Assembly (NCBI GenBank): GCA_963809485.1 | Contig: CAWEJX010000001.1 | Span: 320,001 to 384,000, forward strand | Direction: 5' to 3' | Length of the DNA stretch: 64,000 nucleotides | Source of the DNA: an uncultured Acidobacteriota bacterium | GTDB taxonomy: Bacteria; Acidobacteriota; UBA6911 | In this document: in pieces, positions 7,903 to 26,083 of the stretch | Numbering within the stretch: position 1 is the first letter of the stretch | Layout of the letters: each line of letters starts with the position of its first letter | Made by a program: the position numbers and the translations under genes | Notes under the pieces: model-generated | Told to the model about the DNA's origin: nothing | Database searches by the model: none | What the model saw: the letters and a program-made list of their open reading frames with translations, nothing else

Positions 7903-8484
7903 ATGAATGGAGTTCAGCAGACGGTGATTTACGAGAAAGCCATGGATCTGCAGTTTCTCAATGAGGTCTATCGCATTCCAGGCGGTGAAAAGATCAAGGA
8001 TTGCATCCAGTGCGGCACCTGCAGCGGATCCTGCCCGGTATCCTGGGCGATGGAGGAAACGCCCCGACAGATATTCGCCATGGTCCGGGCGGGGATGAGG
8101 GATAAGGTATTAGACAGCCTCACGATATGGACCTGTGCGTCCTGCTACCAGTGCATGCATCGCTGCCCTCAGAAGATCAAGATTACAGACATTATGTACA
8201 TGCTTAAGAGAATGGCCATACGGGAGAACCGTCAACGGAGTAAGAATGCGGGCATCATGTCGAGGTCATTCGTGGATATTGTTAACAAGAAAGGCCGCAA
8301 TCACGAGACCTCGCTAATGGTCAAAATCCTGCTGGGCACAAACCCACTTGGGGCGATATCCCTGGCACCTATCGGCATCGGTTTGTACACCCACCATCGC
8401 CTTCCCCTATTCGGGAAAGGAGTTCGCGATATTGTTGGCCTTCGAAAAATCGTTGCCAAAGCTCAAGAATTGGGAGGTGAATGA
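7903..8484 (+). CDS. hdrC: Heterodisulfide reductase subunit C (2x[4Fe-4S])
   Basis: CIQCGTCSGSCP and CASCYQCMHRCP motifs; GGAGG RBS; adjacent to hdrB. Confidence 0.92.
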   Translation: MNGVQQTVIYEKAMDLQFLNEVYRIPGGEKIKDCIQCGTCSGSCPVSWAMEETPRQIFAMVRAGMRDKVLDSLTIWTCASCYQCMHRCPQKIKITDIMYMLKRMAIRENRQRSKNAGIMSRSFVDIVNKKGRNHETSLMVKILLGTNPLGAISLAPIGIGLYTHHRLPLFGKGVRDIVGLRKIVAKAQELGGE

Positions 8485-9350
8485 TGCGTTACGCTTATTA
8501 CCCCGGGTGTTCCCTGGAGGCGACTGGGAGACCCTATGAGGAATCGGTGAAAGCAGTTGCCAAGGCGTTGGGGATTGAGCTGGTGGAGCTTGAAGACTGG
8601 AACTGTTGTGGCGCCACGGCCTATATGAGCGTAAATGAAGTTCTCTCTTTCAGTTTGAGCGCCCGCAACCTGACCCAGGCAAAAAAGATAGGGGACACGT
8701 TGGTCACAGCCTGCAGTGCCTGCTATACGAATTTGCGCAAGACAGAAACCTATCTCGCTGATTTCCCGGAAATTAAGGGCAAAGTTGATGCAGCCCTAGC
8801 AGAGGCGGGTTTAAAGTATGAAGGAGGCGTTGTCACAAAGCACTTTCTTCAGACAGTTGTGCAGGACGTCGGGCTGGATCGGATCAAATCCCTCGTGAAA
8901 ATCCCTCTTTCAGGACTTCGGGTAGCTCCCTATTATGGCTGTCAAATAGCCAGACCTTATGGCATAGAGGACGACTCGGATAATCCGACCATGATGGACA
9001 GGCTGATTGAGGCAATCGGCGCAACTCCGACCAACTATCCGATGAAGACGATGTGCTGCGGCGGCTCTTTGATGGGAATACGCAAGGAGGTTGCGCTTCG
9101 CCTCTGCCGTAATTTGCTTCTCTGCGCCCAGCAGTATGGCGCGCAATGCGTTGTAGTAACGTGCCCGCTATGTCAAATGAACCTGGATGCGTTTCAATCG
9201 GCCATTAACAAGGCCTACGGCACGAGCTTCAATCTTCCAATAGTTTATTTCACTCAATTGATGGGCCTTGCGTTTGGACTGGATTCGAGGGGCCTGGGGC
9301 TGAAGGATTGCATCGTCTCGGCGACGGAAGCCATCGCGAAATACGCATAA
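8481..9350 (+). CDS. hdrB: Heterodisulfide reductase subunit B (two CCG domains)
   Basis: YYPGCS, WNCCGA, ACSAC, YYGC, CCGG, CPLC motifs. Confidence 0.95.
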   Translation: MMRYAYYPGCSLEATGRPYEESVKAVAKALGIELVELEDWNCCGATAYMSVNEVLSFSLSARNLTQAKKIGDTLVTACSACYTNLRKTETYLADFPEIKGKVDAALAEAGLKYEGGVVTKHFLQTVVQDVGLDRIKSLVKIPLSGLRVAPYYGCQIARPYGIEDDSDNPTMMDRLIEAIGATPTNYPMKTMCCGGSLMGIRKEVALRLCRNLLLCAQQYGAQCVVVTCPLCQMNLDAFQSAINKAYGTSFNLPIVYFTQLMGLAFGLDSRGLGLKDCIVSATEAIAKYA

Positions 9351-9359
9351 GGAGATCGC

Positions 9360-10223
9360 ATGAGTACCAAAATTGGCGTCTATGTGTGCCACTGCGGCAC
9401 GAACATCTCCGGCAAAGTGAACGTTGTTGATGTTGCCCAGTTTGCCAGGACCCTGCCCGGCGTGGTAGTAGCCCGGGAGTATAAATTCATGTGCTCGGAT
9501 CCGGGACAGATACTTATTGAGGACGACATCAAAAACCTGGGCCTTGACCGCATCGTGGTGGCCTCATGTTCCCCGCTGATGCACGAACCCACTTTCCGCG
9601 GCGCGTGCGAGAGGGCCAACGTAAACCGCTATCTGTTCCAGATGGCAAATATACGGGAGCATTGCTCGTGGGTAACCGTGGATCCGAACGCGGCAACCGA
9701 AAAAGCCAAGGCTCTGCTTGCCGGTGCAGTCGCCAAAGCCGGCAATCTCCAATCACTGCCGCACAAAACCGTTCCGGTAAATCCAGCGGCTCTTGTGGTG
9801 GGCGCAGGGATTGCGGGGATTCAGGCAGCTCTGGATATCGCCGATGCGGGGCGGACCGTGTATCTGGTCGAAAAACAGCCCTCGATAGGCGGGCACATGG
9901 CCCTGTTCGACAAGACTTTCCCAACCTTGGATTGCGCAGCCTGCATTCTGACTCCCAAGATGGTGCAAGTTGGCAAACATCCGAATATAAAGCTGATGCC
10001 TTCCAGCGAAGTTGAAAAAGTTGAAGGGTTTGTCGGCAACTTCAGTGTAAAGGTCCGACATAAGGCCACTTACGTCGATGCCACCAAATGCACCGGTTGT
10101 GGGCTTTGCTGGGAATCGTGCCCGGCGAGGAAAATCCCTGCAACCCGCGTAATACGCAAAGGCCAACTGGTTATAGGCAGCAGCAAGGGCGGCAACGGAT
10201 TCCTGAAAAGCTCTGTTCGATAA
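9360..10223 (+). CDS. hdrA: Heterodisulfide reductase subunit A, N-terminal half (split HdrA)
   Basis: VYVCHCGTNI, ASCSPLMHE, NIREHCSW, FAD motif GAGIAG, DKTFPTLDCAACIL; ends after one ferredoxin motif CTGCGLCWESCP. Confidence 0.9.
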   Translation: MSTKIGVYVCHCGTNISGKVNVVDVAQFARTLPGVVVAREYKFMCSDPGQILIEDDIKNLGLDRIVVASCSPLMHEPTFRGACERANVNRYLFQMANIREHCSWVTVDPNAATEKAKALLAGAVAKAGNLQSLPHKTVPVNPAALVVGAGIAGIQAALDIADAGRTVYLVEKQPSIGGHMALFDKTFPTLDCAACILTPKMVQVGKHPNIKLMPSSEVEKVEGFVGNFSVKVRHKATYVDATKCTGCGLCWESCPARKIPATRVIRKGQLVIGSSKGGNGFLKSSVR

Positions 10224-10239
10224 TAGATGAAGGCAAAAA

Positions 10240-10605
10240 ATGACAAGCTCGAAAAGCCCCCATTCGATCACACTCGAAGAAGTGAGAAAGCTGCTGGAAG
10301 CAGAGGTGCTTAACGGCAACGACCTCTCGATAAAAGTCGCGGCTGTCGGAGCTGCGGACTTGCTGAGCGACGTGCTCAATACAAGCAAGACGGGAACACT
10401 GCTTTTAACCGGACTGGTCAGCCCACAAGTAATAAGGACTGCCATCGTGGCTGACCTCTGCGGCGTGGTTTTTGTACGCGGGAAGAAGCCCGGGGATGAG
10501 ATTCTCGCGCTCGCGCGGGAATCGAAAATTCCGGTTCTCGGCACGCGGCTCAAGATGTTTGAAGCCGCGGGGCGCCTATACACGGCAATTTCAGGGAACC
10601 GATGA
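10240..10605 (+). CDS. DRTGG-domain protein (hydrogenase regulatory cassette)
   Basis: AADLLSDVL...LLLTGL...VIRTA...VFVRGK pattern. Confidence 0.8.
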   Translation: MTSSKSPHSITLEEVRKLLEAEVLNGNDLSIKVAAVGAADLLSDVLNTSKTGTLLLTGLVSPQVIRTAIVADLCGVVFVRGKKPGDEILALARESKIPVLGTRLKMFEAAGRLYTAISGNR

Positions 10606-11033
10606 TGCATGAGGCATTCGAAAGTGTATATAACGTCCTGGGAAGGGACTTCTCCAATGCCGGAAAGGTTTCCACATCCATCAAGGATACGCTCAAGCGC
10701 CTTGGCGTCAGCCCCACGGTGGTGCGCCGCGTCGCAATCGTGTCCTACGAGGCAGAGATGAACCTGGTCATGTATGCGCATCGGGGAAGGGTCTCGCTCA
10801 GTGTCAGCCCGGATGCGGTGACGCTCAGCATCGACGATGAGGGGCCGGGGATCCCGAATATAGATCTCGCAATGCAGGAAGGCTACTCCACGGCTACTCC
10901 CGAAATGAGGGAAATGGGGTTCGGCGCGGGCATGGGGTTGCCGAACATTAAAAAAAACGCGGATGAATTTGACATCCGCTCCGAAGTCGGTCAAGGCACA
11001 AGCCTTTTCATTCGTGTAAGACAGGCTGCATAG
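10602..11033 (+). CDS. Anti-sigma-factor-like Ser/Thr kinase (RsbT-like GHKL)
   Basis: YEAEMN, DEGPGI, AMQEGYSTA, GFGAGMGLPN. Confidence 0.88.
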   Translation: MMHEAFESVYNVLGRDFSNAGKVSTSIKDTLKRLGVSPTVVRRVAIVSYEAEMNLVMYAHRGRVSLSVSPDAVTLSIDDEGPGIPNIDLAMQEGYSTATPEMREMGFGAGMGLPNIKKNADEFDIRSEVGQGTSLFIRVRQAA

Positions 11034-11039
11034 ACGATA

Positions 11040-12359
11040 ATGGCCCAATACCATCATTCATTGCGTTTTGATCCCGAAAGATGCGAAGGATGCATGTCCT
11101 GCATGCGCGCCTGCCCGACGGCGGCTGTGCGCATCCGCAAAGGCCGGGCCGTAAAACTAGCGGACCGGTGCATCGATTGCGGCGAGTGCATCCGGGTCTG
11201 TCCGCGGGCGGCGATCGTGCCCCTGACAGACCAGATGGCCGACCTGTCCAATTTCGAGCTGAAGGTGGCAATTCCCTCGCCTGCGTTGTACTCCCAGTTC
11301 GACTCGGAAGTTTTCCCGAGCATGATCTTTTCAGCGCTGAAACAATGCGGCTTCGACGACGTCGAGAGCGTTTCCCCCGCCTGCGACGCCGTGACCATTG
11401 CCACGGAGATTTTCCTGAACGAATATCGCGGCGAATACCCGCTGATTTCATCCTTTTGCCCGACAGTCGTCCGCCTCCTTCAGGTCAAGTATCCCGAGCT
11501 GGTAGATCAGCTTCTGCCCGTGCTGGCGCCCAGGGAAATTTCAGCCCGGGATGCGAAGGCGCGCAAATCCAGGGAAACAGGGCTGCCGTCCGAAAAAATC
11601 GGAGCCATCTACATCACGCCGTGTCCCTCCAAGATCGTCGCGATCCTGGAACATCCGGGGATGCGCCGATCCTACCTCGATGCCGCGGTATCCATAAGCG
11701 ATCTGTTCCAGACTCTGGCCGCTGCCGTGTCAAGGATTCAGGAGACCGAGCCTAACATCGACACTGTAGAATCGGCTTCGGGCCTCAGCTGGTCATTCCT
11801 GGAGAAGTTTCCACGGTCGCTGCCTGCGGAAAACACCCTGTCGGTTGCCGGACTGCCGAACGTCATACGGATCCTGGATGACATCGAAAAGGGGCGGCTG
11901 CGCAAATACCGGTACATTGAATGCCACGCTTGCCCCGAAGGATGCGTGGGAGGATGCCTTACTGTCGAAAATCCCTATCTGGCGCGCGGAAAGGCGATCA
12001 AGCTGCAGCAAAGCCTGCCTGCCGGGTGCATTGTGGACAGGCGCGAGGTCGAAGTTTCCTACCGGAAGAAGGAATTTTTAATGGATGAATACCTCGCAGG
12101 CCGTCCGTTGCGGCCATTGGATGCGGATATTTCGGCGGCCATTCATAAAATGAAGGAGCGGGACCGTATTTATGCAGACCTCCCAAAAATCGATTGCGGA
12201 GCTTGTGGCGCGCCTTCTTGCCGGGCATTCGCCGAAGACGTCGTGCTGGGAGAAGCCGACAAGGCTTCCTGCGTTTTTTTCTGGCAGAGAGATCTTGAGA
12301 ATCGCATTGAGCAGCTTGCCGACTTGGTCAGGACTCAAAAGCGAAGCATCGGAGGGTAA
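11040..12359 (+). CDS. [FeFe]-hydrogenase-like Fe-S protein (putative sensory type): N-terminal 2x[4Fe-4S], H-cluster-like domain, C-terminal FeS domain
   Basis: Ferredoxin motifs; variant H-cluster motifs SSFCP / ITPCPSK / ECHACPEGCVGG; C-terminal DCGACGAPSC. Confidence 0.82.
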   Translation: MAQYHHSLRFDPERCEGCMSCMRACPTAAVRIRKGRAVKLADRCIDCGECIRVCPRAAIVPLTDQMADLSNFELKVAIPSPALYSQFDSEVFPSMIFSALKQCGFDDVESVSPACDAVTIATEIFLNEYRGEYPLISSFCPTVVRLLQVKYPELVDQLLPVLAPREISARDAKARKSRETGLPSEKIGAIYITPCPSKIVAILEHPGMRRSYLDAAVSISDLFQTLAAAVSRIQETEPNIDTVESASGLSWSFLEKFPRSLPAENTLSVAGLPNVIRILDDIEKGRLRKYRYIECHACPEGCVGGCLTVENPYLARGKAIKLQQSLPAGCIVDRREVEVSYRKKEFLMDEYLAGRPLRPLDADISAAIHKMKERDRIYADLPKIDCGACGAPSCRAFAEDVVLGEADKASCVFFWQRDLENRIEQLADLVRTQKRSIGG

Positions 12360-12361
12360 CC

Positions 12362-12712
12362 GTGAACATCGCTGATGCCGCAAAAAAGATCGACGGAACC
12401 ATAGTGGCCGGGACCGGAGCTGCCGGTCGTGAGATTCAGGGCGGCTATGCTTCGGATCTGCTCTCGGACGTCATGGGAAACAGCCGGGAGGGCGATATAT
12501 GGGTGACGATGCAGAAGCATGTGAACATCGTCGCCGTCGCCCAGCTGAACGGCCTGGCGGCAATTGTGCTGGTTAACGGGCGGGTGCCTGAGCCGGACAC
12601 GCTGTCCAGAGCCGAAGAAATGGCAATCCCGATCATATCCACTCCGCTGCAGGCTTTTGATGTCATCGGCATTCTATACGGTTTGGATATTCGCGGAAGG
12701 AGGCCCGTCTGA
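12362..12712 (+). CDS. DRTGG / HPr-kinase N-terminal-like protein
   Basis: GGYASDLLSDVMGN...WVTMQKHVNIVAVA pattern; GTG start after GGAGG. Confidence 0.8.
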   Translation: MNIADAAKKIDGTIVAGTGAAGREIQGGYASDLLSDVMGNSREGDIWVTMQKHVNIVAVAQLNGLAAIVLVNGRVPEPDTLSRAEEMAIPIISTPLQAFDVIGILYGLDIRGRRPV

Positions 12713-12714
12713 GG

Positions 12715-14013
12715 GTGTTCATGGTCGATACACACATTCACACCTGCCTCTCACCTTGTGCGGAGCTGGACATGCATCCGGCGGCGCTGATCGATGCCGC
12801 CGTCTGCGCGGGGCTGGATTCCATCGCCATATGCGACCACAACTCGGCCGAGAACGCCGGTGCGGTTCAGCGCGCCGGGCTTGCGGCGGGGCTGGCCGTC
12901 ATCCCCGGGATGGAAATCACCAGTGCAGAGGAAGTTCACATCCTGGGGCTGCTGCCCGACCTGGAATCCGCAATGGCTCTCCAGTCCAAAGTTTACAGGT
13001 CGCTGCCCGGGCGAAACGACGAAAATACATTCGGGATGCAGGTCGTGGCGAATGAGTTCGCCGAAGTCCTCGGATTCAATGAGCACTTGCTCGCGGGAGC
13101 GACAACTCTGAGCCTCGAGGCGGTTGTGGCGGCGATTCACTCCGTGGATGGACTGGCTGTAGCTTCCCACGTGGACCGGGAAGGTTTTGGAATCATCGGC
13201 CAGCTGGGCTTCATTCCCCCGGAACTGCCCCTGGATGCGATCGAAATATCGCAGCGAATGCCGCTGACCCGGGCGCGGGCAACCTACGCTCCCAGAGGGG
13301 AGCACCCGATTCTCTGCGCATCCGACGCCCATGAACCCAAGGATATCGCACGGGCGGCGACCTATATCCTGATGGAGCAGGCCACTCTGCAGGAACTGCG
13401 CCGGGCCCTGACCGGAGAGGGAGGGCGCACAATTCTCGGCGGAGGAAGGCCCATGGAAGATCTTGCATTGCACATCCTGGATATAGTGCAGAACAGTCTG
13501 GAGGCCGGCGCGGCGATGATCGAGATCGGGATTAGCGAGGATCCAGGGGAAGACCGGATGACGATCGAAGTCCGGGACAACGGACGCGGAATGGATCCGG
13601 AAACCGTCGCGAAAGTCACCGATCCGTTTTTCACCACGCGAACAACCCGCAGGGTCGGCATGGGGCTTCCCCTTCTGGCCGCCGCAGCCAAAGCGGCCGG
13701 GGGAGAGCTTACCGTCGATTCAAAGCCCGGATCGGGGACACTTATCCGCGCGACCTTCCAGCACGGTCACATGGACAGGGCGCCGCTGGGCGATATCGAA
13801 ACGACTCTGATGGTGCTCCTGGCGGGTCAGCCGGACCGGAACATATGCTTCAGGCACCGGGTGAATGACCGGGAATTCGAGCTGGATTCCCGGGATTTCC
13901 TCGCGGCGGACATTGATCTGTCCTCGCCGATCGGGCTGGCGATTTTACGGGAGGCGATCCGTAAAGGCGAGGCCGGCTTGCAGTTTTCCGTACACGGCCG
14001 CCGTGGAGTGTAG
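12715..14013 (+). CDS. PHP-domain phosphoesterase fused to a stand-alone HATPase_c (histidine-kinase-like) domain
   Basis: DTHIHTCLSPC, CDHNS, SDAH (PHP), then MEDLALHILDIVQNS, DNGRGM, DPFFTT, GMGL (GHKL). Confidence 0.85.
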   Translation: MFMVDTHIHTCLSPCAELDMHPAALIDAAVCAGLDSIAICDHNSAENAGAVQRAGLAAGLAVIPGMEITSAEEVHILGLLPDLESAMALQSKVYRSLPGRNDENTFGMQVVANEFAEVLGFNEHLLAGATTLSLEAVVAAIHSVDGLAVASHVDREGFGIIGQLGFIPPELPLDAIEISQRMPLTRARATYAPRGEHPILCASDAHEPKDIARAATYILMEQATLQELRRALTGEGGRTILGGGRPMEDLALHILDIVQNSLEAGAAMIEIGISEDPGEDRMTIEVRDNGRGMDPETVAKVTDPFFTTRTTRRVGMGLPLLAAAAKAAGGELTVDSKPGSGTLIRATFQHGHMDRAPLGDIETTLMVLLAGQPDRNICFRHRVNDREFELDSRDFLAADIDLSSPIGLAILREAIRKGEAGLQFSVHGRRGV

Positions 14014-14090
14014 GAAATGCCATTAACTGCGCCGGACGGAGTCGGCACCCCGTCCTTAGACAGAGCGCGATCAGTGAATCGGAGGCAAAT

Positions 14091-14597
14091 ATGGTTGATG
14101 TTTCGAAGGTAAAGGAAATCCTGGATCGGCACGGTGCGAAGCGCGAGCGCATGATTGCCATACTGCTCGACTGCCAGGAGGAATATTATCACCTGCCACG
14201 CGAAGTGCTGGAAGCAGTCTCGGCAGGAGTCAATATCCCCCTGGCATCGGTCCTGGCGATCGCGACCTTCTTTAAGGCCTTCAGCCTAAAACCAATCGGG
14301 CGCTATCCGATCCGCGTCTGCAACGGTACAGCCTGCAACATCAAGGGCGGACCTCTGCTGGTGGATGCCTTGGAGCGCGAACTGAAGATCAAGAAGGGAG
14401 ACACGACAGCGGACAACCTGTTCGGGCTGGACACGCTGAACTGCGTCGGCTGCTGCGGACTGGCTCCGGTCATCACGGTGGGCCAGGACGTGCACGGGAA
14501 AGTGAAGATATCCTCCATACCCAAGATGGTTAAGCAATACCGTCCGAAGGACCGGACGGATTCGAAGGAGGGGCAAGATGGCGAGACTGTCCATTGA
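14091..14597 (+). CDS. NuoE/HydC/HndA-like [2Fe-2S] subunit
   Basis: VCNGTAC...NCVGCCGLAPV thioredoxin-like [2Fe-2S] motif. Confidence 0.92.
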   Translation: MVDVSKVKEILDRHGAKRERMIAILLDCQEEYYHLPREVLEAVSAGVNIPLASVLAIATFFKAFSLKPIGRYPIRVCNGTACNIKGGPLLVDALERELKIKKGDTTADNLFGLDTLNCVGCCGLAPVITVGQDVHGKVKISSIPKMVKQYRPKDRTDSKEGQDGETVH

Positions 14598-14961
14598 TGA
14601 CCTGAAGAAAATCCGGGAGGACGCAAAGCGCACATTGACTCTGAGATCGGGCGAAGCGCGCGCCAAGGTTACCATTCACATGGGCACCTGCGGCATTTCC
14701 GCAGGTGCGCGCAATGTCATGGGCGCCCTGCTGAAAGCGATTGAAGACCTCAAAATAACCGACGTGATTGTCACGACTTCTGGCTGCGCCGGACTGTGCA
14801 GCCGGGAGCCGATGGCGACAGTCGAAATTGCGGGTCAGACCCCCGTAAAATACGCGGACCTGAAACCCGAGTCCATCGTGAGAGTGCTCAAGGATCATGT
14901 TCTCGAGGGCAAAATTGTCACCGAGTATGCCCTCGCAAGCGGCTGTGAAACTACCGGCTAG
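14578..14961 (+). CDS. Thioredoxin-like [2Fe-2S] ferredoxin (HndB/HydD-like)
   Basis: MGTCGISAGAR...SGCAGLCSREP; lies between nuoE-like and nuoF-like genes. Confidence 0.88.
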   Translation: MARLSIDDLKKIREDAKRTLTLRSGEARAKVTIHMGTCGISAGARNVMGALLKAIEDLKITDVIVTTSGCAGLCSREPMATVEIAGQTPVKYADLKPESIVRVLKDHVLEGKIVTEYALASGCETTG

Positions 14962-14978
14962 ACAGCCGGCTGGGAGGT

Positions 14979-16829
14979 GTGAATATCATGGCATTCCGCA
15001 CACATGTGTTGGTTTGCGCAGGAACCGGATGCGTTTCCGGCAACTCTTACGCAACGGCAACGGCTCTTGAAACCGAAATTTTTAAAAAAGGCCTCGCACA
15101 GGAAGTACAGGTCATCCGGACGGGTTGCCAGGGATTCTGCGCTGAAGGCCCCATCGTCATCGTGCAGCCGGATGGGGTTTTCTATTGCGGCGTCAAAGCG
15201 AAGGATGCGCCTTTCCTTGTCGAAGAACATCTCGTAAAGGGCCGGCCCGTTAAAAAGCTGATGTATACGCCGCCTGAGACCAAGGGCCCGATTCCGGCAC
15301 TGAAGGAAATTCCTTTCTTCGCCAAACAGAAACTGGTGGTGCTCAGGAACCGGGGCGTCATCGATCCGGAAAAAATCGATGATTACATCGCGGTGGACGG
15401 CTACACGGCGATTGAAAAGGCTTTGTTCCAGATGACTCCGGAACAGATCATCTCGGAGATCAAGCGATCAGGACTGCGCGGCCGCGGCGGCGGCGGATTT
15501 CCGGCCGGTGTCAAGTGGGAGACATGCCGCCATGCCGCACAGCACCGCGGCGTGGAACCGGTGATCGTGTGCAATGCCGACGAGGGGGATCCCGGCGCCT
15601 TCATGGACCGCAGCATTATCGAAAGCGATCCGCATTCTGTGATCGAGGGAATGATCATTGGCGCCCGGGCGATCGGATGCAAGGAGGGATTTGTTTATAT
15701 CCGCCGAGAGTATCCCATCGCACGGGAGCGCCTTCTGAAAGCCCTGGAACAGGCGCGCGCATACGGCCTCCTCGGCACCGATATCCTGGGCAGCGGGATG
15801 GATTTCGACATAGAGATCGTCCAGGGTGCCGGAGCTTTCGTATGCGGCGAGTCCACGGCCCTGATGGCTTCCCTGGAAGGGAATGTCGGGGAGCCGAGAG
15901 CTAAATATATCCATACTGTCGAGTATGGATACAAGAACCGCCCGACAAATCTCAACAACGTGGAAACCTGGGCCAACGTGCCGCTGATCATAAACCGCGG
16001 CGCGCACTGGTTCGGCTCGATGGGAACCGGCAGCGTCGCCGAAAACCCGTGGAGCGGCAGCAGCGGAACAAAAGTCTTCTCGATGGTCGGGAAGATCAAC
16101 AACACAGGCCTGATCGAAGTCCCTATGGGCATCTCGCTGCGCGAGATAATTTTCGACATCGGCGGAGGGATCCCCGGAGGCAGAAAGTTTAAGGCCGTTC
16201 AGACCGGAGGGCCTTCCGGCGGTTGTCTGCCTGAATCCCACCTCGACATGCCCGTCGATTTCGACAGCCTGACGGAAGCGGGTTCCATGATGGGCTCGGG
16301 CGGGATGATCGTGATGGACGACCAGACCTGCATGGTGGATGTGGCCCGCTACTTCATTGCCTTCCTGACAGAGGAGTCGTGCGGCAAATGCTCCCCCTGC
16401 CGTGAGGGACTCAGAACCTCCCTCGATGTCCTCGACCGGATCACCCAGGGCAAGGGAGCGCCGGGCGACATTGAGCTGCTCCAGGAAATTGCAGAGGTCA
16501 TGCAGGACTGCTGCCTCTGCGCCCTCGGGACCTCGGCGCCGAATCCCGTTCTCTCGACCCTCCGCTACTTTAAGGATGAGTACGATGCGCACATCAAAGA
16601 GCATCGCTGCCCGGGTGGAGTCTGCAAGGAACTGATCGAATACACCATCGATCCTGATAAATGCGACGGATGCCACGCCTGCGTGCGGGGTTGCTCGGTA
16701 CAGGCTATTACGGGTGATGTAAAGAAAACTCATACACTGGACAAGGCCAAGTGCATCAAATGCGGGGCGTGTATCGAAGCCTGCAAGCGTGATGCAGTCC
16801 AGAAGGTACCCAGGAGCTATGCGGCATGA
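14979..16829 (+). CDS. NuoF/HydB/HndC-like FMN- and NAD(P)H-binding subunit with N-terminal [2Fe-2S] and C-terminal 2x[4Fe-4S]
   Basis: RGRGGGGFP, NADEGDPGAFMDR, GGPSGGC, ESCGKCSPCREG, HRCPGGVC, two C-terminal ferredoxin motifs. Confidence 0.95.
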   Translation: MNIMAFRTHVLVCAGTGCVSGNSYATATALETEIFKKGLAQEVQVIRTGCQGFCAEGPIVIVQPDGVFYCGVKAKDAPFLVEEHLVKGRPVKKLMYTPPETKGPIPALKEIPFFAKQKLVVLRNRGVIDPEKIDDYIAVDGYTAIEKALFQMTPEQIISEIKRSGLRGRGGGGFPAGVKWETCRHAAQHRGVEPVIVCNADEGDPGAFMDRSIIESDPHSVIEGMIIGARAIGCKEGFVYIRREYPIARERLLKALEQARAYGLLGTDILGSGMDFDIEIVQGAGAFVCGESTALMASLEGNVGEPRAKYIHTVEYGYKNRPTNLNNVETWANVPLIINRGAHWFGSMGTGSVAENPWSGSSGTKVFSMVGKINNTGLIEVPMGISLREIIFDIGGGIPGGRKFKAVQTGGPSGGCLPESHLDMPVDFDSLTEAGSMMGSGGMIVMDDQTCMVDVARYFIAFLTEESCGKCSPCREGLRTSLDVLDRITQGKGAPGDIELLQEIAEVMQDCCLCALGTSAPNPVLSTLRYFKDEYDAHIKEHRCPGGVCKELIEYTIDPDKCDGCHACVRGCSVQAITGDVKKTHTLDKAKCIKCGACIEACKRDAVQKVPRSYAA

Positions 16830-18583
16830 AAACCATCAAAATTAAGATCGACGATATCGAAACCGAAGCCGAGGACAGGACACCGATCCTCTCCATTGCG
16901 CAGAAACTCGGGATCAAGATCCCGACCCTGTGTCACCACCCGCTCCTGGAGCCATACGGCGTCTGCCGCATATGTACCGTCGAGGTAAGATCCGGCAAAC
17001 GTGTCCGCATGGTGACGGCGTGCAATTACCCCGCAACCAACGGCATCGAGGTTCTGACGAATTCGCCCCGCGTCCGGCGCGACCGGAGACTGATCCTCGA
17101 GTGGATGATGGCACGCTGCGGGCATGTCAAAGTCATCGAGGATCTGGCTGCAGAGTACGGCATCAAAGAACCCAGGTTCGGGCGCGGCGACGATGACTGC
17201 ATCCTGTGCGGGCTGTGCGTGCGCGTATGTTCTGATGTCGTCGGCGCCAATGTGCTCGGCTTCTTCAACCGCGGAGCGACGCGCGAGGTTTCGACTGCCT
17301 ATGGCGAAACCTCGGACAAATGCATCGCGTGCGGGTCCTGCGCTTTCGTATGCCCGACAGGAGCGATTCAGATAGAAAACGACTCGGCCCTGGTCCGCGA
17401 GGCTCTTCCGCTCGGTCCGCTGACTCCCATTCACGTCCCCTTCCTGCAGGCTGTGCCGCACCAGCCGGTAATCGATCGCGACTCCTGCATCCATTTCAAG
17501 ACCGGTGGATGCAAGGTCTGCGAAAAAGTCTGCGAGGTCAAGGCTGTGAATCATGCCCAGGAGGATGTGATCGAAAATATCGAGGTTGGAGCGGTTATCC
17601 TCGCCACAGGCTTTCAGCAGTTCGATGCCAAAAGAGTCTCGGAATACGGCTACGGCGTCTACCCGAATGTATTGACCGGCCTCGAGTTCGAAAAGATGAA
17701 CAGCGCTTCGGGCCCGACCGGTGGACAGATTATGCTGCAAAACGGGCAGGCGCCGAAAAGCGTGGGCATTATCCACTGCGTCGGAAGCCGCGACGAGCGC
17801 AACAATAAGTACTGCTCCCGCGTCTGCTGCATGTACGCATTGAAGTTCGCCCACCTGATCAAGGAAAAGACCGGAGCGGACGTGTATAACTTTTACATCG
17901 ACATGCGCTGCTTCGGGAAGGGCTACGAGGAATTCTATCACCGCCTGCTCGAGGAAGACGTGCGCTTCATCCGCGGACGCGCCGCGGCGATCACGGATTT
18001 CCCGTTCAACGAGCAGGAAGTCGGCAAACTGATCATCCGTGTGGAAGACACATTGATCGGCCAGGTGCGGCGCGTCCCTGTCGACATGGCCATCCTGGCT
18101 ACCGGCCTTGAGCCGGCGGCGGACGCCACGGATGTCGCCCATACTTTCAACATAAGCTGCGGTGGCGGATTCTTCACGGAACGGCATCCGAAACTTGCTC
18201 CGGTGTCCACCCCAACGGACGGCATATTTATTGCGGGCACGTGCCAGGGCCCGAAAGACATCCCTGATACGGTTGCACAGGCTGGCGCCGCCGCGTCCGC
18301 AGTCCAGTCCCTCATATCCAGGGGGGAGATCGAGGTTGAGTCGGCCACCAGCGTAGTGGATGCGGAAAAGTGCTCAGGCTGCCGACTCTGCAACACTCTC
18401 TGTTCGCTCTCGGCCATCACATTTGACGAAGAGAAAAAGGTCACCGTTATTAATGATGTATTGTGCAAGGGATGCGGCACCTGTGCCGCCGCGTGCCCCA
18501 GCAGCGCCATTCTGGCGCGGCACTTCACCGATGAACAGTTGTTCTCCGAAATAGAAGGGGTGCTGTATGACGTTCGAGCCTAA
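16826..18583 (+). CDS. hdrA: Fusion of a NuoG/HydA-type N-terminal Fe-S domain ([2Fe-2S] + 2x[4Fe-4S]) with the C-terminal half of HdrA
   Basis: IPTLCHH..GVCRICTVE..TACN, CILCGLCVRVC, CIACGSCAFVCP, then HdrA motifs PFLQAVP, ILATG, CVGSRD, YCSRVCCMYALK, GTCQGPKDI and C-terminal ferredoxin. Confidence 0.9.
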   Translation: MKTIKIKIDDIETEAEDRTPILSIAQKLGIKIPTLCHHPLLEPYGVCRICTVEVRSGKRVRMVTACNYPATNGIEVLTNSPRVRRDRRLILEWMMARCGHVKVIEDLAAEYGIKEPRFGRGDDDCILCGLCVRVCSDVVGANVLGFFNRGATREVSTAYGETSDKCIACGSCAFVCPTGAIQIENDSALVREALPLGPLTPIHVPFLQAVPHQPVIDRDSCIHFKTGGCKVCEKVCEVKAVNHAQEDVIENIEVGAVILATGFQQFDAKRVSEYGYGVYPNVLTGLEFEKMNSASGPTGGQIMLQNGQAPKSVGIIHCVGSRDERNNKYCSRVCCMYALKFAHLIKEKTGADVYNFYIDMRCFGKGYEEFYHRLLEEDVRFIRGRAAAITDFPFNEQEVGKLIIRVEDTLIGQVRRVPVDMAILATGLEPAADATDVAHTFNISCGGGFFTERHPKLAPVSTPTDGIFIAGTCQGPKDIPDTVAQAGAAASAVQSLISRGEIEVESATSVVDAEKCSGCRLCNTLCSLSAITFDEEKKVTVINDVLCKGCGTCAAACPSSAILARHFTDEQLFSEIEGVLYDVRA

Positions 18584-19007
18584 AATCGTTGGCATTCTCT
18601 GTAACTGGTGTTCCTACACCGGCGCGGATCTGGCGGGCACATCCCGCATCAAGTATTCACCAAACGTCCGGGTCGTCCGCGTCATGTGCTCCGGCAGGGT
18701 CGATCCCACCTTCATCCTGAAGGCGTTTGCCGACGGCGCGGACGGCGTGCTGGTGGCGGGCTGCCATCCCGGCGACTGCCATTACATCGAAGGGAATTAT
18801 AAGACCATTCGCCGCATGGCCCTTCTGAAGCACATGCTGGCGGACTACGGAATAGAGCCGGAGCGGTTTCGACTGGAATGGGTGTCGGCAGGCGAAGGAG
18901 ATCGTTGGGCTCATGTGGTCAATGCAATCACCGAAGATGTTCGGAAACTTGGGCCTACCAAAATAAAGCCACGGGCCAGAAAAAAGACATCTTCATCAGC
19001 GGCATAA
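18567..19007 (+). CDS. mvhD: Methyl-viologen-reducing hydrogenase delta subunit MvhD/FlpD
   Basis: LCNWCSYTGADLAG, VMCSGRVDP, GCHPGDCHY. Confidence 0.95.
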   Translation: MTFEPKIVGILCNWCSYTGADLAGTSRIKYSPNVRVVRVMCSGRVDPTFILKAFADGADGVLVAGCHPGDCHYIEGNYKTIRRMALLKHMLADYGIEPERFRLEWVSAGEGDRWAHVVNAITEDVRKLGPTKIKPRARKKTSSSAA

Positions 19008-19084
19008 GGGACATTAAGATGCGGTCGCAAGTCGCAAACCTGAGACCTGGGACCTGGGACTGAATTTTGAAAGTGGAGGCATGG

Positions 19085-20041
19085 ATGGCAAAACTTAAGC
19101 TGGCATCATATTGGGCTGCAGCCTGCGGAGGATGCGATGTCGCCATCCTCGATTTACACGAGAAAATACTCGACCTCGCCGCCGCAGCGGACATCGTCTT
19201 TTGGCCGATTGCCACGGATTTCAAATACAGCGATGTGGAGGCAATGCCCGACGAAAATATCGACGTAACTCTCTTCCACGGAGCCGTGCGCAACTCGGAA
19301 AATGAGCACCTGGCCCGTCTTTTGAGGGCAAAATCCAAGGTTCTTGTGGCATTCGGATCGTGCGCCCATATCGGCGGAATTCCGGGGCTGGCAAACCTTT
19401 TCACAAAAGAAGAGATTTTCAAGCGCATCTACCACGAAACGCCGTCCACCGTGAATGCGGAGAATTTCGAGCCTCAGCCGAAGCTGGCGGTAGCCGAAGG
19501 AGAGGTGACAATCCCGGAATTCTACAACACGGTCAAGACGCTCGACCAGACGGTGGACGTCGACTATTACATGCCCGGCTGCCCCCCGACGCCCAAGCAG
19601 ATCTGGAATGTCGTCCAGGCGATTGTGGGCGGGCAGCTTCCGCCCAAGGGTTCGGTTATCGGGGCCTCCGAAAAGACCCAGTGTGACGAATGTCCGCGCC
19701 CGAGGAAGGAAAAGAAGATTACGGGTTTCAAGCGGATAGCAACCGCCCAGCCGGATCCGGACACCTGTTTCCTGGAGCAGGGATTTCTGTGCCTGGGTCC
19801 CGTTACGCGAGGCGGATGCGATGCCCGGTGCCAGAATTCCGGCGTCCCCTGCCGAGGCTGTTATGGTTCTCCGGCCGGTGTCCTTGACATGGGGGCCAAA
19901 GCCATATCGGCGATAGCATCGGTCATCGAGGCTAAAGAAGAAGCCGAAGTGGAACGTATCATCCAGCAAATCCCGGATACTCTCCGCAGTTTTAACCGGT
20001 TCGGAATTCCAGCATCACTCATCACAAGGAAAATATCATGA
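19085..20041 (+). CDS. mvhG: Group 3c [NiFe]-hydrogenase small subunit MvhG
   Basis: ACGGCD, GSCAHIGGIPG, PGCPP, CLGPVTRGGC..C...PCRGC; ATG 19085 after GGAGG. Confidence 0.92.
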   Translation: MAKLKLASYWAAACGGCDVAILDLHEKILDLAAAADIVFWPIATDFKYSDVEAMPDENIDVTLFHGAVRNSENEHLARLLRAKSKVLVAFGSCAHIGGIPGLANLFTKEEIFKRIYHETPSTVNAENFEPQPKLAVAEGEVTIPEFYNTVKTLDQTVDVDYYMPGCPPTPKQIWNVVQAIVGGQLPPKGSVIGASEKTQCDECPRPRKEKKITGFKRIATAQPDPDTCFLEQGFLCLGPVTRGGCDARCQNSGVPCRGCYGSPAGVLDMGAKAISAIASVIEAKEEAEVERIIQQIPDTLRSFNRFGIPASLITRKIS

Positions 20042-21501
20042 AACGCATTTCGATTGATCCCATTACAAGGCTTGAAGGGCATGGAAAGATAGACATCTTC
20101 CTCGCAGACGACGGAAGTGTAGCGAACTGCTACTTCCAGGTGCCCGAGCTGCGCGGATTCGAGAAGTTCGTAGAGGGGATGCCGATAGAGGAAGTCCCGC
20201 GGGTGGTGTCGCGGATCTGCGGCGTCTGACCGGCCTCACACCACCTGGCCTCGGGTAAGGCCGCAGATGCAGTCTACAAGGTCGATCCGCCTCCTGCAGC
20301 AAAAAAGCTCCGCGAGATGTACAACGCGGCAGCCTTCGTTCATAGCCACATCGCCCACTTCTATGCCCTCGCAGCACCGGACTTTGTCTTGGGTCCTGAT
20401 TCCGATCCCGCAAAACGCAACATTTTGGGTGTCGTTGAAAAAGTGGGCATACCGATAGCAGGCGAGGTTTTGAAACACCGCGCCATCGCCCAGGATATCC
20501 AGATTACGGTGGGGGGCAGGTCTACGCATCCCGTGTGGACTCTTCCCGGAGGAGTATCCAAGGGAATAACCGAAGAGCAGCGCAAAGAAATAATAGAAAA
20601 AGCAAAATCCTGCGTGGAGTTCTCAAAGTTCTCCCTGAAGCTGTTCGAAGACGTAGTGCTGAAGAACAAGGCCTACCTGGATATCATCCTGTCCGACATT
20701 TTCGAAATGGACAGCTACTGGATTGGCACTGTCGATTCAAAGAATTGCGTGAACTTCTACCATGGCGATCACAGAATAGTGGATCAAAAAGGCAAGGAAG
20801 TATTCCGGTACAAGGACCACGAGTATCTCGACTTCATCTCGGAGCGCGTGGAGAAATACAGCTATCTGAAATTCCCATATCTGAAAAAGATCGGCTGGCA
20901 GGGGTTTGTGGATGGGCCGTCTTCGGGTGTGTATATGGCAACTCCGCTGTCCAGGCTGAACGCAGCCGATGGCATGGCTACTCCATTGGCCCAGGAAGAG
21001 TATGAAAAAATGTACAGCACTCTGGGAGGCAAGCCCATAAAGAAGCTTATGGCGACGCACTGGGCCAGGCTTGTCGAATTGCTTTATGCAGCGGAAAGAC
21101 TGCTGGAACTGGCACAGGATCCGGAGACAGCTTCGCCCAACATCCGGACGCTTCCCACGGCAACGCCTGAAGAGGGCGTGGGAATCGTGGAGGCGATGCG
21201 CGGAATTCTCACCCATCATTACAAAACGGACAAGAACGGCCTTGTTACGGAAGCCAACCTGATCGTCGGCACGACCAACAACAATGCTCCGATCTCGATG
21301 TCCATCAAACGTGCCGCGCAGAAATTGATCCAGCCGGGCAAGGAAGTCGGACAGGGTCTGCTGAACATGGTCGAAATGGCCTTCCGGCTCTACGATCCCT
21401 GCTTCTCCTGCGCGACGCACTCGCTGCCCGGCCAGATGCCCTTAATCGTGGAAGTGATCAACGCCGACGGAAAAATCATTCATCGGGAGGGCCGGAACTA
21501 G
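20038..21501 (+). CDS. mvhA: Group 3c [NiFe(Se)]-hydrogenase large subunit MvhA, 487 aa, read through TGA (probable selenocysteine) at codon 64
   Basis: Track ORFs 20038-20229 and 20317-21501 are in the same frame: ITRLEGHG...RICGV(TGA)PASHH...YDPCFSCATH plus cleavable C-terminal tail. Confidence 0.9.
20245..20266 (+). promoter_or_regulatory. Putative bacterial SECIS hairpin
   Basis: GGCCT-CGGGTA-AGGCC (20247-20262); apical loop begins 22 nt after the TGA at 20227-20229, with G in loop position 2. Confidence 0.65.
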
Positions 21502-21661
21502 CGGGCGCAGAGGACCTCCGCCAGGTTGAACGGTTGCACCTTGAACGTTGAAAGAACACCCTGGGTCCACAAGGCGACATGGAAAACCTTTGAGCTCGGA
21601 TACGAACAATCCCGGTCCCGACACCTTGAAATCTGCACGCATTGGCGGGGCGACAAAAACC

Positions 21662-22165
21662 ATGAAGGTCCGCATTATCGGTCTGGGCAACTCGATACTC
21701 ACCGACGACGGCGTTGGCATCTACACCGCCCGCGAGGTGGCAAGACGTCTATCCGCGGCCGGCCTCCGGGACCGCGTGGACATTGTGGAATCGGAAGTGG
21801 CAGGGTTTGCCCTTATGGAACTGATGGCCGGTTGGGATCGCATCATTCTGATCGATTCCGTCCAATTCGAGGGATTGGAATCCGGCACAGTGATCCGTAT
21901 CGCGCCCGAAGATCTTCACACGTCCCTGCGACTGCGTTCCGTGCACGACATCGATCTGCCGACAGCGCTTGAACTGGCCCGACGGATGGGAATCGCCATG
22001 CCCCGCGATCTCATGATTTTCGGCATTCAGGCGGAGGACTGGCTGACGCTCGGCGAATCCCTGACCGATGCGGCAGAACGCGGCATGAAGACAGCCGCAG
22101 ACCTCGTCCTTTCCGAACTGGATCGGGAAGGAGCAATGAATCCGAGATCCGAAATTCGGAACTGA
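21662..22165 (+). CDS. Hydrogenase maturation endopeptidase (HycI/HybD family)
   Basis: IIGLGNSILTDDGVG, ILIDS, SVHD; directly after mvhA. Confidence 0.92.
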   Translation: MKVRIIGLGNSILTDDGVGIYTAREVARRLSAAGLRDRVDIVESEVAGFALMELMAGWDRIILIDSVQFEGLESGTVIRIAPEDLHTSLRLRSVHDIDLPTALELARRMGIAMPRDLMIFGIQAEDWLTLGESLTDAAERGMKTAADLVLSELDREGAMNPRSEIRN

Positions 22166-22270
22166 GTGCGGCAATTTAGGGACTGCGGAGATCGGCCCGG
22201 CGGCAAGCGCCTCCAGGCCGATGCGAAGCCCCAACTCTCGAATCGCGCATTTTTAGTCCGGGTGCCGACC

Positions 22271-24265: not shown

Positions 24266-24266
24266 T

Positions 24267-25688: not shown

Positions 25689-26083
25689 AGTCAGGTACCT
25701 CCCGCAAAGCCGGAGACTTGAAGGATTTGAACCGCTCAAAGCGGTTGGACTAGTTACGCCGGTCTTGAACGCTGACTTACGTGGGCAAAAGCCGATGAGG
25801 CGCTTCCGATCCCCGCAGGGGCCAGCGCTCCGCGCTGGACAGTTTTCTGCGGCGGCACTGTGGCAAGCGCCGTGCGGCAAGGAGATGAAGGGTATGAGAA
25901 ACCGGGCGTTTGCCACAGTGCCGCCGCAGAAAACTCCATCGGAAGCGCCTCATCGGCTTTTGCTCGCCGACCCTCGCCGAACAAATCGGCGTTTGTCAGC
26001 GCTTTTTTCAGCGTTTCTCAGCGTTTCAAAATACGGAGCTGTCAAACTCTTTGAGTCCCCCGGCAGAGCCGGGGGATTACCAA
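25689..26083. mobile_element. Non-autonomous palindromic element (MITE/PATE-like) with IS200/IS605-type terminal hairpins, copy 1
   Basis: Nearly identical to 45561-45951; end hairpins CCCCCGGC-AGA-GCCGGGGG (26057-26075) and AACCGC-TCAAA-GCGGTT; two nested 26 bp inverted repeats (25785-25810/25938-25963 and 25841-25866/25910-25935); no transposase ORF. Confidence 0.75.

Follow-up and report, generated by a model that had tools for sequence, protein, structure and literature searches.

Introduction

Electron bifurcation is the route by which strict anaerobes obtain low-potential reductant on little spare energy. To our knowledge, every bifurcating complex known until 2026 had been described with a single bifurcation site. 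In the FlxABCD-HdrABC system of sulfate reducers, NADH is linked to HdrABC via an MvhD-like protein, the NADH module belonging to the FlxA family, and this system lacks a hydrogenase, a NuoEF/Bfu core and any gene fusion into HdrA. Here we describe an operon at positions 7903-22165 of a 64,000-nucleotide stretch of DNA (hereafter the window; positions 320,001 to 384,000 of contig CAWEJX010000001.1, assembly GCA_963809485.1) from an uncultured Acidobacteriota bacterium, in which hdr genes, genes of the Bfu family and mvh genes of a [NiFe]-hydrogenase stand together, hdrA being divided between two genes and its C-terminal part being fused to a BfuA-like domain. This operon is likely to encode one cytoplasmic Mvh-Hdr-Bfu complex that holds both bifurcating modules.

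The nearest relatives of the window operon are unsplit operons of the MvhAGD-HdrABC type, found in methanogens (PDB 5odc, 8rvu) and in bacteria as hdrCBA-mvhDGA-hycI (group 3c), with which it shares all six subunit families in the same order. HdrA of this type is described as a succession of N-terminal cluster, flavin adenine dinucleotide (FAD), inserted ferredoxin and C-terminal ferredoxin domains (PMC12054007), with the input running via MvhD and the C-terminal ferredoxin domain and with the inserted ferredoxin domain as the low-potential exit reducing external ferredoxin (10.64898/2026.04.10.717634; PMC12054007). In the Bfu family, an N-terminal [2Fe-2S] and a C-terminal 2 x [4Fe-4S] domain set bifurcating BfuB apart from NuoF/HoxF (Schut et al. 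2022, PMC9304861), and the sole Hdr-containing class described in the HdrA passages of that survey is Bam-Bfu.

The characterised and structurally solved complex with both kinds of module is the class II benzoyl-CoA reductase (BCRII) Bam[(BC)2DEFGHI]2 (Appel et al., bioRxiv 2026, 10.64898/2026.04.10.717634), in which HydBC-type BamGH and the BamI wire are joined in one complex to HdrA-type BamE, a fused HdrA dimer, together with an MvhD-like adaptor, an HdrBC/HdrD-like output, an inserted ferredoxin domain as low-potential exit and a tungsten-pterin BamB/BamC catalytic module. There the Bfu wire stands at the input side (C-terminal ferredoxin domain plus BamF), the exit leads to the tungsten site and an electron-transferring flavoprotein is the high-potential acceptor, and the same work showed that stacking of two bifurcating module types is possible. 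At the level of prediction, the type III HdrA of ANME-1 and Bathyarchaeota carries a pyridine-nucleotide module, a GltD insert, at the inserted ferredoxin domain, with mvhADG in the Bathyarchaeota cluster, and this insert is proposed to block ferredoxin access and to re-route electrons to or from NADH (PMC12054007).

Results

A divided HdrA joined to a Bfu module by gene fusion

Splitting of hdrA occurs at 10223/16826, with 6.6 kb separating the two halves. Residues 3-256 of the N-half align to HdrA 12-266 of PDB 8rvu_a (E 2.2e-98) and hold the N-terminal [4Fe-4S] domain, the first part of the FAD domain with GxGxxG, an LDCAAC pair and motif 1 of the inserted ferredoxin domain, CxxCxxCxxxCP (C244, C247, C250, C254), the gene being cut just past this motif. 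The remainder of HdrA lies in a fusion protein, of which residues 149-581 align to HdrA 230-651 (PDB 9sfi_A, E 1.6e-116). Its HdrA-homologous segment begins a little ahead of motif 2 (C221-C236) of the inserted domain and continues with the remaining FAD domain, containing the lysine of CCMYALK, and the C-terminal ferredoxin domain, and together the two halves span HdrA residues about 5-652. Since the FAD domain is divided between them, neither half can be expected to bind FAD alone.

Ahead of this segment, residues 4-184 of the fusion protein align to a 247-aa NuoG-like chain (PDB 9mqx_A, E 4.7e-37) and also match the N-termini of bifurcating HydA subunits. This domain contains a [2Fe-2S] motif (C36, C47, C50, C66) and two 4-Cys motifs (C125-C135, C166-C176), about 13 residues lying between the second of these and the HdrA-homologous segment, and no motif for a His-ligated cluster was seen in reading its sequence. 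A [2Fe-2S] and two [4Fe-4S] clusters with no His-ligated one are the set of Type 2 / clade 45 BfuA (PMC9304861). The cluster cysteines of the fusion protein, including the three 4-Cys motifs near the cut, are invariant in 13 relatives, and the four 4-Cys motifs at the cut would correspond to two dicluster domains, one of BfuA type and one the inserted domain of HdrA rebuilt from two chains.

The whole operon comprises 16 genes on the + strand with short gaps or overlaps (seven adjacent pairs overlap and the widest gap is 77 bases), as established from the list of open reading frames (ORFs), Pfam, NCBIfam and the sequence; the gene order agrees with that given by the first-pass annotation, which had counted 15 genes. 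The co-oriented block runs on to 25673 through a histidine kinase and a response regulator (Pfam), with glmS as the upstream neighbour of the operon and a strand switch downstream. The features are as follows.

7903-8484, + strand: hdrC; Pfam Fer4_8/Fer4_9, 2 x CxxCxxCxxxC
8481-9350, + strand: hdrB; Pfam CCG in two stretches, E 2.9e-28
9360-10223, + strand: hdrA N-half, 287 aa; match to PDB 8rvu_a
10240-10605, + strand: DRTGG-domain protein of the regulatory cassette; Pfam DRTGG, E 1.8e-8
10602-11033, + strand: small HATPase_c_2 protein, anti-sigma-F (SpoIIAB)-like serine kinase; Pfam HATPase_c, HATPase_c_2
11040-12359, + strand: HydS-like putative sensory [FeFe]-hydrogenase homologue; Pfam Fe_hyd_lg_C, E 1.2e-28, and FeS (PF04060)
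12362-12712, + strand: second DRTGG-domain protein; Pfam DRTGG, E 6.5e-7
12715-14013, + strand: PHP phosphoesterase fused to a HATPase kinase domain; Pfam PHP, PHP_C, HATPase_c
14091-14597, + strand: bfuC / hydC-like (NuoE-like) [2Fe-2S] subunit; Pfam 2Fe-2S_thioredx, E 3.5e-42
14578-14961, + strand: 127-aa thioredoxin-like [2Fe-2S]-ferredoxin-like protein; sub-threshold NCBIfam match
14979-16829, + strand: bfuB / hydB-like (NuoF-like) subunit for flavin mononucleotide (FMN) and NAD(H); match to PDB 7t2r_B
16826-18583, + strand: fusion of BfuA-like domain and HdrA C-part, 585 aa; Pfam Fer2_4, Fer4, and PDB matches
18567-19007, + strand: mvhD ([2Fe-2S] adaptor, hydrogenase to HdrA); Pfam FlpD, E 7.9e-56
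19067-20041, + strand: mvhG ([NiFe]-hydrogenase small subunit); Pfam Oxidored_q6, E 8.8e-26
20038-21501, + strand: mvhA ([NiFe]-hydrogenase large subunit) with TGA at 20227-20229; translation, Pfam NiFeSe_Hases on the C-part
20246-20263, + strand: hairpin resembling a selenocysteine insertion sequence, 17 nt after the UGA; comparison across loci
21548-22165, + strand: HycI-type hydrogenase maturation protease; Pfam HycI, E 2.2e-13, residues 64-190
22166-24265, + strand: Cache/HAMP sensor histidine kinase; Pfam
24243-25673, + strand: sigma-54 response regulator; Pfam

Within the Bfu module, BfuB residues 5-610 align to 3-597 of PDB 7t2r_B (E 4.4e-233) and BfuB also aligns to 7q4v_B, 8a6t_B and 7p5h_B, all of them solved bifurcating HydB/BfuB chains. 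It possesses both the N-terminal [2Fe-2S] domain and the C-terminal 2 x [4Fe-4S] domain, its cysteines C13, C18, C50, C54, C562-C572 and C592-C602 are invariant in 14 relatives, and it is assigned to the full-length bifurcating type. BfuC retains C77, C82, C118 and C122 in all of 15 relatives. The locus thus has the components of the family, namely BfuB with extra clusters, BfuC with one [2Fe-2S] cluster and a BfuA wire (fusion residues ~1-185), while differing from it in that the module for the third substrate would be a second bifurcating flavoprotein, HdrA, with hydrogenase and disulfide reductase. The 127-aa protein encoded between bfuC and bfuB has no domain found by Pfam and a weak, below cut-off NCBIfam match to fdxn_Clost (2Fe-2S ferredoxin; E 4.5e-7); its cysteines stand at 38, 70, 74 and 123, just three of the usual four aligning.

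Multimer modelling was carried out for BfuB, BfuC and fusion residues 1-200, which dock with a score of 0.85 against 0.09 for the best control, the mark used being reached by 58 of 80 solved complexes and by 2 of 110 mismatched pairs; as HydABC complexes have already been solved, the model shows likeness and not binding. Runs share at least 96% of contacts with a partner pLDDT (per-residue model confidence) of at least 83, and the modelled interface brings the [4Fe-4S] helix bundle of BfuB (464-513) to the [2Fe-2S] region of the fusion protein, which is predicted to dock on BfuC 50-60 as well.

HdrBC and the hydrogenase

HdrC has eight cysteines in its two CxxCxxCxxxC motifs, and hdrC stands upstream of hdrB in related loci as well. 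Both CCG motifs of HdrB are complete (C10..C42C43..C78xxC81 and C154..C192C193..C228xxC231), as the first-pass annotation had stated; this was confirmed by two Pfam CCG matches and by the cysteine pattern. The comparison with MvhAGD-HdrABC thus holds for the domains of HdrA (here on two polypeptides), HdrB with two CCG, HdrC with 2 x [4Fe-4S], MvhD, MvhG, the maturation protease and MvhA with both Ni-binding motifs, one ligand being encoded by TGA. Absent here is the single-chain HdrA with a free inserted ferredoxin domain. Unlike MvhAGD-HdrABC, the locus has a BfuA wire on the inserted ferredoxin domain, with BfuBC encoded in the gap, five regulatory genes inside the operon and a TGA at the second cysteine of the N-terminal MvhA motif.

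The mvhA gene had been recognised in the first-pass annotation, which missed its in-frame TGA. The gene at 20038-21501 is complete only with read-through of the TGA at 20227-20229, since the stop-free ORF (20317-21501) does not contain the N-terminal Ni-binding motif. With read-through the motifs are RICGV-U-P at the N-terminus and DPCFSCATH at the C-terminus, the TGA replacing the second cysteine of RxCGxC, which we take to be a ligand bridging Ni and Fe. Of 51 homologues, 7 have TGA at this codon and the other 44 have Cys, and all seven TGA-type homologues occur in loci of unsplit type, from Krumholzibacteriota, UBP1 and Dehalococcoidales. A hairpin UGGCCU-CGGGUA-AGGCCG or a close variant is present at the same place in the window and in all seven other TGA genes, whereas no conserved hairpin was found in the 44 Cys-type mvhA genes; folding of the single window sequence downstream of the TGA gave no significant structure (z -0.04). 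The genome encodes tRNA-Sec, selA and selB, and the in-frame TGA probably specifies selenocysteine (Sec). A 2026 review gives the Sec motif of MvhA/VhuA/VhuU as UxxC, a C-terminal motif (PMC13188914). Catalogued [NiFeSe] hydrogenases carry Sec in C-terminal DPUxxC, whereas here the C-terminal motif is DPCFSC and the TGA lies in the N-terminal motif (CxxU). A Sec-containing bacterial MvhA2 was mentioned in 2009, its position being absent from the main text.

With hdrA interrupted and mvhA bearing an in-frame stop, the locus might be taken for a decaying one, in which hdrA was wrecked by a foreign HydABC cassette and mvhA by a nonsense mutation, the more so as contig C6 of the genome carries another hdrA-mvhDGA-hycI cluster in which hdrA is unsplit. 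We regard this as very improbable, because the split and the fusion recur with open frames across many phyla (38 of 80 loci, 47-68% identity), the TGA codon with its downstream hairpin is shared by seven other genomes, and the genome possesses the Sec genes.

The ORF of the protease HycI as listed begins with TTG at 21548. An ATG (MKVRIIGLGN) at 21662 is probably its true start, because relatives align only from residue about 37-40.

Distribution and co-inheritance

Relatives of the fusion protein number in the thousands, with a length of 581-596 aa in 112 of the 120 best protein clusters. Among 599 candidate stretches (one genome per species), 585 encode such a relative, and the best 80 loci, all from metagenome-assembled genomes (MAGs), were compared, the fusion being scored by local tblastn. 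The full fusion is present in 38 of these 80, and a 39th, L065, has the N-part in another frame. Of the 38 fusion loci, 37 have bfuB as the immediate upstream neighbour, a position it takes in none of the 42 non-fusion loci, of which 36 are unsplit, with hdrA(N)-like sequence joined directly to the C-part. The complete set of hdrCB, hdrA(N), bfuCB, fusion, mvhD and mvhGA is found in 19 loci, 11 with regulators (long form) and 8 without them; the gene for the 127-aa protein occurs only in long-form loci. The claim of the first-pass annotation that the two bifurcation classes are tied by gene fusion holds at the level of sequence, with co-inheritance of HdrBC, MvhD and MvhGA.

The nearest named homologues are from Acidobacteriota MAGs, and the named loci with a fusion relative span more than 10 phyla, the carriers being Acidobacteriota, Aminicenantes, Zixibacteria, Ignavibacteriota, Calditrichota, Verrucomicrobiota, Planctomycetota, Chloroflexota, Armatimonadota, Myxococcota, Desulfobacterales and one 'archaeon'. 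Sampling of 401 genomes of the same phylum gave a junction-spanning match in 25 (the source genome included), in frames of 533-618 aa; one congeneric genome (92% identity) and two that share the family are among them. Among uncultured bacteria of soil and sediment, the design is a common one. Two genomes of the phylum sample also show junction-spanning matches of 38-42% identity (G133:C16:28371-29159 and G291:C23:6843-7631), in ORFs of 1076 and 1085 aa that may be still larger fusions.

Conservation extends to the N-half, since all 29 split N-halves long enough to include motif 1 retain its cysteines. Moreover, an N-half is present in 33 fusion loci, and in six of these (L031, L037, L041, L045, L050, L064) a second, independent fusion joins HdrA(N) and NuoE/BfuC in a single ORF, with Pfam 2Fe-2S_thioredx at E 1e-43 to 1e-47 over residues about 280-425, and in these genomes the Bfu trimer is predicted to be tethered to HdrA at both ends. 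These findings bear on the view that the operon encodes separate, co-transcribed enzymes, for example a NADH/ferredoxin-linked [NiFe] hydrogenase of BfuBC, the fusion protein and MvhDGA, with the HdrA C-part a mere connector and with HdrCB and the N-half working elsewhere or being relics. A bifurcating NiFe-HydABCSL hydrogenase without Hdr does exist and the best match of BfuB is to PDB 7t2r; some loci, many of them cut by contig ends, also have no hdrBC or mvhGA beside the fusion. However, the FAD domain is shared out over two halves of which neither would bind FAD alone, the motif-1 cysteines of the N-half are kept throughout, six loci have the N-half joined to BfuC, and hdrCB with hdrA(N) lies upstream in the 19 complete loci. 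Separate enzymes are thus quite unlikely, although less so than decay of the locus.

Two further observations concern individual loci. At L064:8637-11743, HdrA(N)::BfuC is followed directly by the fusion, and at L065:9129-11775 hdrA(N) is followed directly by the frameshifted fusion, with no bfuB between the halves in either case; their bfuB may be elsewhere or lost. In five Chloroflexota fusion loci (L036:5676, L046:2218, L047:2090, L048:3207, L049:7161), a TGA takes the place of the second Cys of LDCxxC in the HdrA N-half, at the known 'CxxU' selenocysteine site of HdrA (PMC13188914); a scan of this motif over the 80 loci gave 10 with TGA or another stop and 58 with Cys.

Operon integrity and regulatory genes

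Mis-assembly, which could have produced such an arrangement on a single contig, is ruled out because the same order recurs in 19 independent MAG loci and the junctions are also covered by independent contigs. These come from soil and wetland, are about 93-94% identical to the window and span the junction of hdrA(N) with the regulators (X1 record 2, 9319-12425; X3 record 19, 9286-13463) and also that of nuoF with the fusion (X3 record 22, 16568-17437; X1 record 6). The source genome is a draft of 21 contigs with an estimated contamination of 7.3%.

Promoter and terminator scans give no firm operon boundaries. Matches to the sigma-54 promoter (TGGCAC-N5-TTGC, up to two mismatches) number 62 against 67.9 expected, with none on the + strand between glmS and hdrC, and sigma-70 promoter-like sites number 8 against 8.7. 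Terminator-like sites amount to 30 against 20.0 expected, one of them after the response regulator at 25822-25838 and no convincing one inside the operon.

Five genes inside the operon, encoding a DRTGG protein, a SpoIIAB-like kinase (NCBIfam spIIAB, E 1.1e-11, below cut-off), an [FeFe]-hydrogenase-like protein, a second DRTGG protein and a PHP-HATPase protein, make up a regulatory cassette. The HydS-like protein consists of 2 x [4Fe-4S], an H-domain and a C-terminal FeS domain and retains its cluster cysteines; compared with the published L1-L3 motifs, its sequence has 'SFCP', 'TPCPSK' and 'ECHACPEGCVGG', with 'SFCP' in place of the TSCCP of HydA. A similar sensory cassette has been published beside group A3 [FeFe]-hydrogenase genes. 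The HydS-like sensor, the two DRTGG proteins and the two kinase-type proteins probably derive from an [FeFe]-HydABC-type locus and regulate the complex. Such an origin would fit a history in which a HydABC-type locus recombined into hdrA and then lost its H-cluster domain. The histidine kinase and sigma-54 regulator are also found after the operon in L019, L020, L037, L038 and L063 and may be dedicated regulators of the complex.

Evolution and other Hdr clusters of the genome

Fusion forms do not separate from unsplit ones in a quick IQ-TREE tree of the HdrA C-part but interleave with them, the 80 rows showing 11 changes between the two. After this first tree was seen, seven rows were dropped, namely four that contig ends cut short (L051, L060, L062, L079), the frameshifted fusion L065, the unclear L043 and the long-branched L064, leaving 6 changes in 73 rows, and on this reduced set the approximately unbiased (AU) test rejected a single fusion clade (p 0.00014). 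As the forms interleave and a single clade is rejected, no single origin is claimed from the C-part. That of the window groups with an Acidobacteriota fusion and with unsplit operons of Krumholzibacteriota, the latter with TGA-type mvhA. The pattern suggests a mosaic history, either by exchange of hdrA(C)-mvh blocks with resident operons or by repeated precise loss of the cassette; since the two Cys motifs look alike, deletion between them would give back an ordinary hdrA.

Elsewhere in the same genome, contig C6:331596-339730 holds two hdrA-like genes, hdrC, mvhD, mvhG, mvhA and hycI, with HdrA unsplit, and the organism therefore has both designs; the mvhA of this cluster aligns in three pieces, with frameshifts or stops possible. 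A third cluster, on the minus strand at C1:477477-485629, contains two HdrA-like genes, mvhD, nuoE-like, nuoF-like and BfuA-like genes, the nuoF-like gene lacking the C-terminal dicluster part in the alignment and the BfuA-like gene having one internal TGA; its layout recalls the BamEFGHI electron module. At C3:459-6924 and C17:165565-170371, hdrC-hdrB-hdrA-like stretches show equal identities and scores to the queries and may represent a duplication or a redundant contig.

Discussion

Proposed electron path

If the operon encodes one complex, HdrA would be rebuilt from its two halves, which would share both clusters of the inserted domain, and BfuBC would dock on the BfuA-like domain in the manner of HydABC. 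H2-derived electrons would pass through MvhA, MvhG and MvhD to the FAD of HdrA and be bifurcated there, the high-potential electron going via HdrC to HdrB and a disulfide, and the low-potential electron going via the inserted ferredoxin domain and the BfuA wire to the FMN/Fe-S site of BfuB and not to free ferredoxin. At this site NAD+ and ferredoxin would be reduced, giving a net conversion of about 4 H2 + 2 RSSR' + NAD+ + Fd(ox, 2 e-) -> 4 thiols + NADH + Fd(red), where Fd is ferredoxin. With the canonical mvhD-mvhG-mvhA at the input side and the Bfu wire at the exit, such a cascade is the simplest reading. The complex, its bifurcation and its substrates are predicted, and we place the direction and exact wiring (H2 in, Bfu out) slightly short of evenly balanced. 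Somewhat more tentative still is the full proposal of an undescribed, widespread 'cascade' hydrogenase in which the low-potential branch of HdrA is passed from protein to protein to the BfuB site, H2 yields NADH and reduced ferredoxin in a disulfide-driven manner, and the hydrogenase of this organism also contains Sec.

The same complex could work in reverse or in a BCRII-like manner, with BfuBC confurcating NADH and reduced ferredoxin into HdrA as donor and HdrA bifurcating to a disulfide and, via MvhD/MvhAG, to H2, or with H2 and NADH/ferredoxin as interchangeable donors. In BCRII, HydBC-type BamGH(I) is the input to HdrA-type BamE; for archaeal type III HdrA, NADH as mid-potential donor with H2 formation, or the reverse, has been proposed (PMC12054007); regulatory cassettes like the present one are found with [FeFe]-HydABC hydrogenase loci; and in seven fusion loci without nearby Mvh another donor or acceptor must exist. 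However, the Bfu wire of BCRII enters via the C-terminal ferredoxin domain and the MvhD-like adaptor, a side that is taken here by MvhD/MvhGA in canonical gene order, and the BfuA domain is tethered to the inserted ferredoxin domain, which is the output. Nothing in the sequence decides the direction. We consider this reading unlikely but the most serious of the alternatives.

Several considerations weigh against the cascade with H2 as donor. BCRII, the sole solved enzyme with both module types, uses Bfu as input to HdrA and not as output; where a fused domain sits in the sequence does not settle the route of electrons through a dimeric HdrA; and the third partner of Bfu normally lies near -400 mV, about the potential of H2, so that feeding Bfu with the low-potential electrons of HdrA looks energetically wasteful. 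Seven fusion loci with at least 6 kb downstream (L024, L039, L040, L041, L042, L047, L050) have no mvhGA on that strand, and thus H2 is not an obligatory partner of the Bfu-HdrA core, and L064 and L065 retain the BfuA::HdrA fusion with no bfuB at the locus. The passing complex model may itself reflect only resemblance to solved HydABC. As to the disulfide substrate, no gene for a GcvH-like lipoyl carrier lies near the operon, the genome having four GCV_H matches, none of them nearby on C1.

Relation to described enzymes

Compared with BCRII, the window operon has a [NiFe] hydrogenase at the input side, the Bfu wire fused at the exit and an HdrB with both CCG; no tungsten/AOR-type subunit or double-HdrA protein was found among the 18 genes scanned with Pfam, and the operon is placed outside the class II benzoyl-CoA reductase family. 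Type III HdrA is a convergent analogue at the same HdrA site. There a GltD domain lies within one polypeptide (PMC12054007), whereas here hdrA is split, the extra part is Fer2_4 and Fer4, with no GltD-type domain found in either half by Pfam or NCBIfam, a three-subunit Bfu module is attached via the BfuA wire, and the C-terminal dicluster domain of BfuB could still serve ferredoxin. No published description of a split-HdrA/Bfu/Mvh operon was found by full-text searches of the literature, supplements and the Appel 2021 HdrA survey lying outside this search. The first-pass annotation knew of no characterised enzyme with this architecture; the principle of combining two classes has a precedent in BCRII, wired differently and with other partners.

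Biological meaning

With potentials of -414 mV for H2, -140 mV for the heterodisulfide, -280 mV for NADH and -500 mV for ferredoxin (PMC9304861), our own Nernst arithmetic gives a mean acceptor potential of -320 mV for canonical Mvh-Hdr and about -265 mV for the cascade. If the cascade is true, and only if the disulfide resembles CoM-S-S-CoB, the H2 threshold would be about 70-fold lower, falling from roughly 70 Pa to roughly 1 Pa, which could explain the frequency of the operon in uncultured anaerobes of soil, wetland and sediment.

The operon would then be a second, differently wired stack of bifurcating modules, with hydrogenase input and with disulfide and Bfu outputs, and it is far more widespread than aromatic degradation of the BCRII type would suggest. 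It changes the reading of 'group 3c hydrogenase' genes in soil and sediment metagenomes, since NADH, in addition to ferredoxin, may be linked to H2 by their products. Sec at the N-terminal Ni-binding motif would be of separate interest for hydrogenase chemistry. The operon also offers a natural test case for the hand-over of electrons between HdrA-type and HydBC-type sites and raises again the question of which disulfide is reduced by bacterial HdrBC enzymes.

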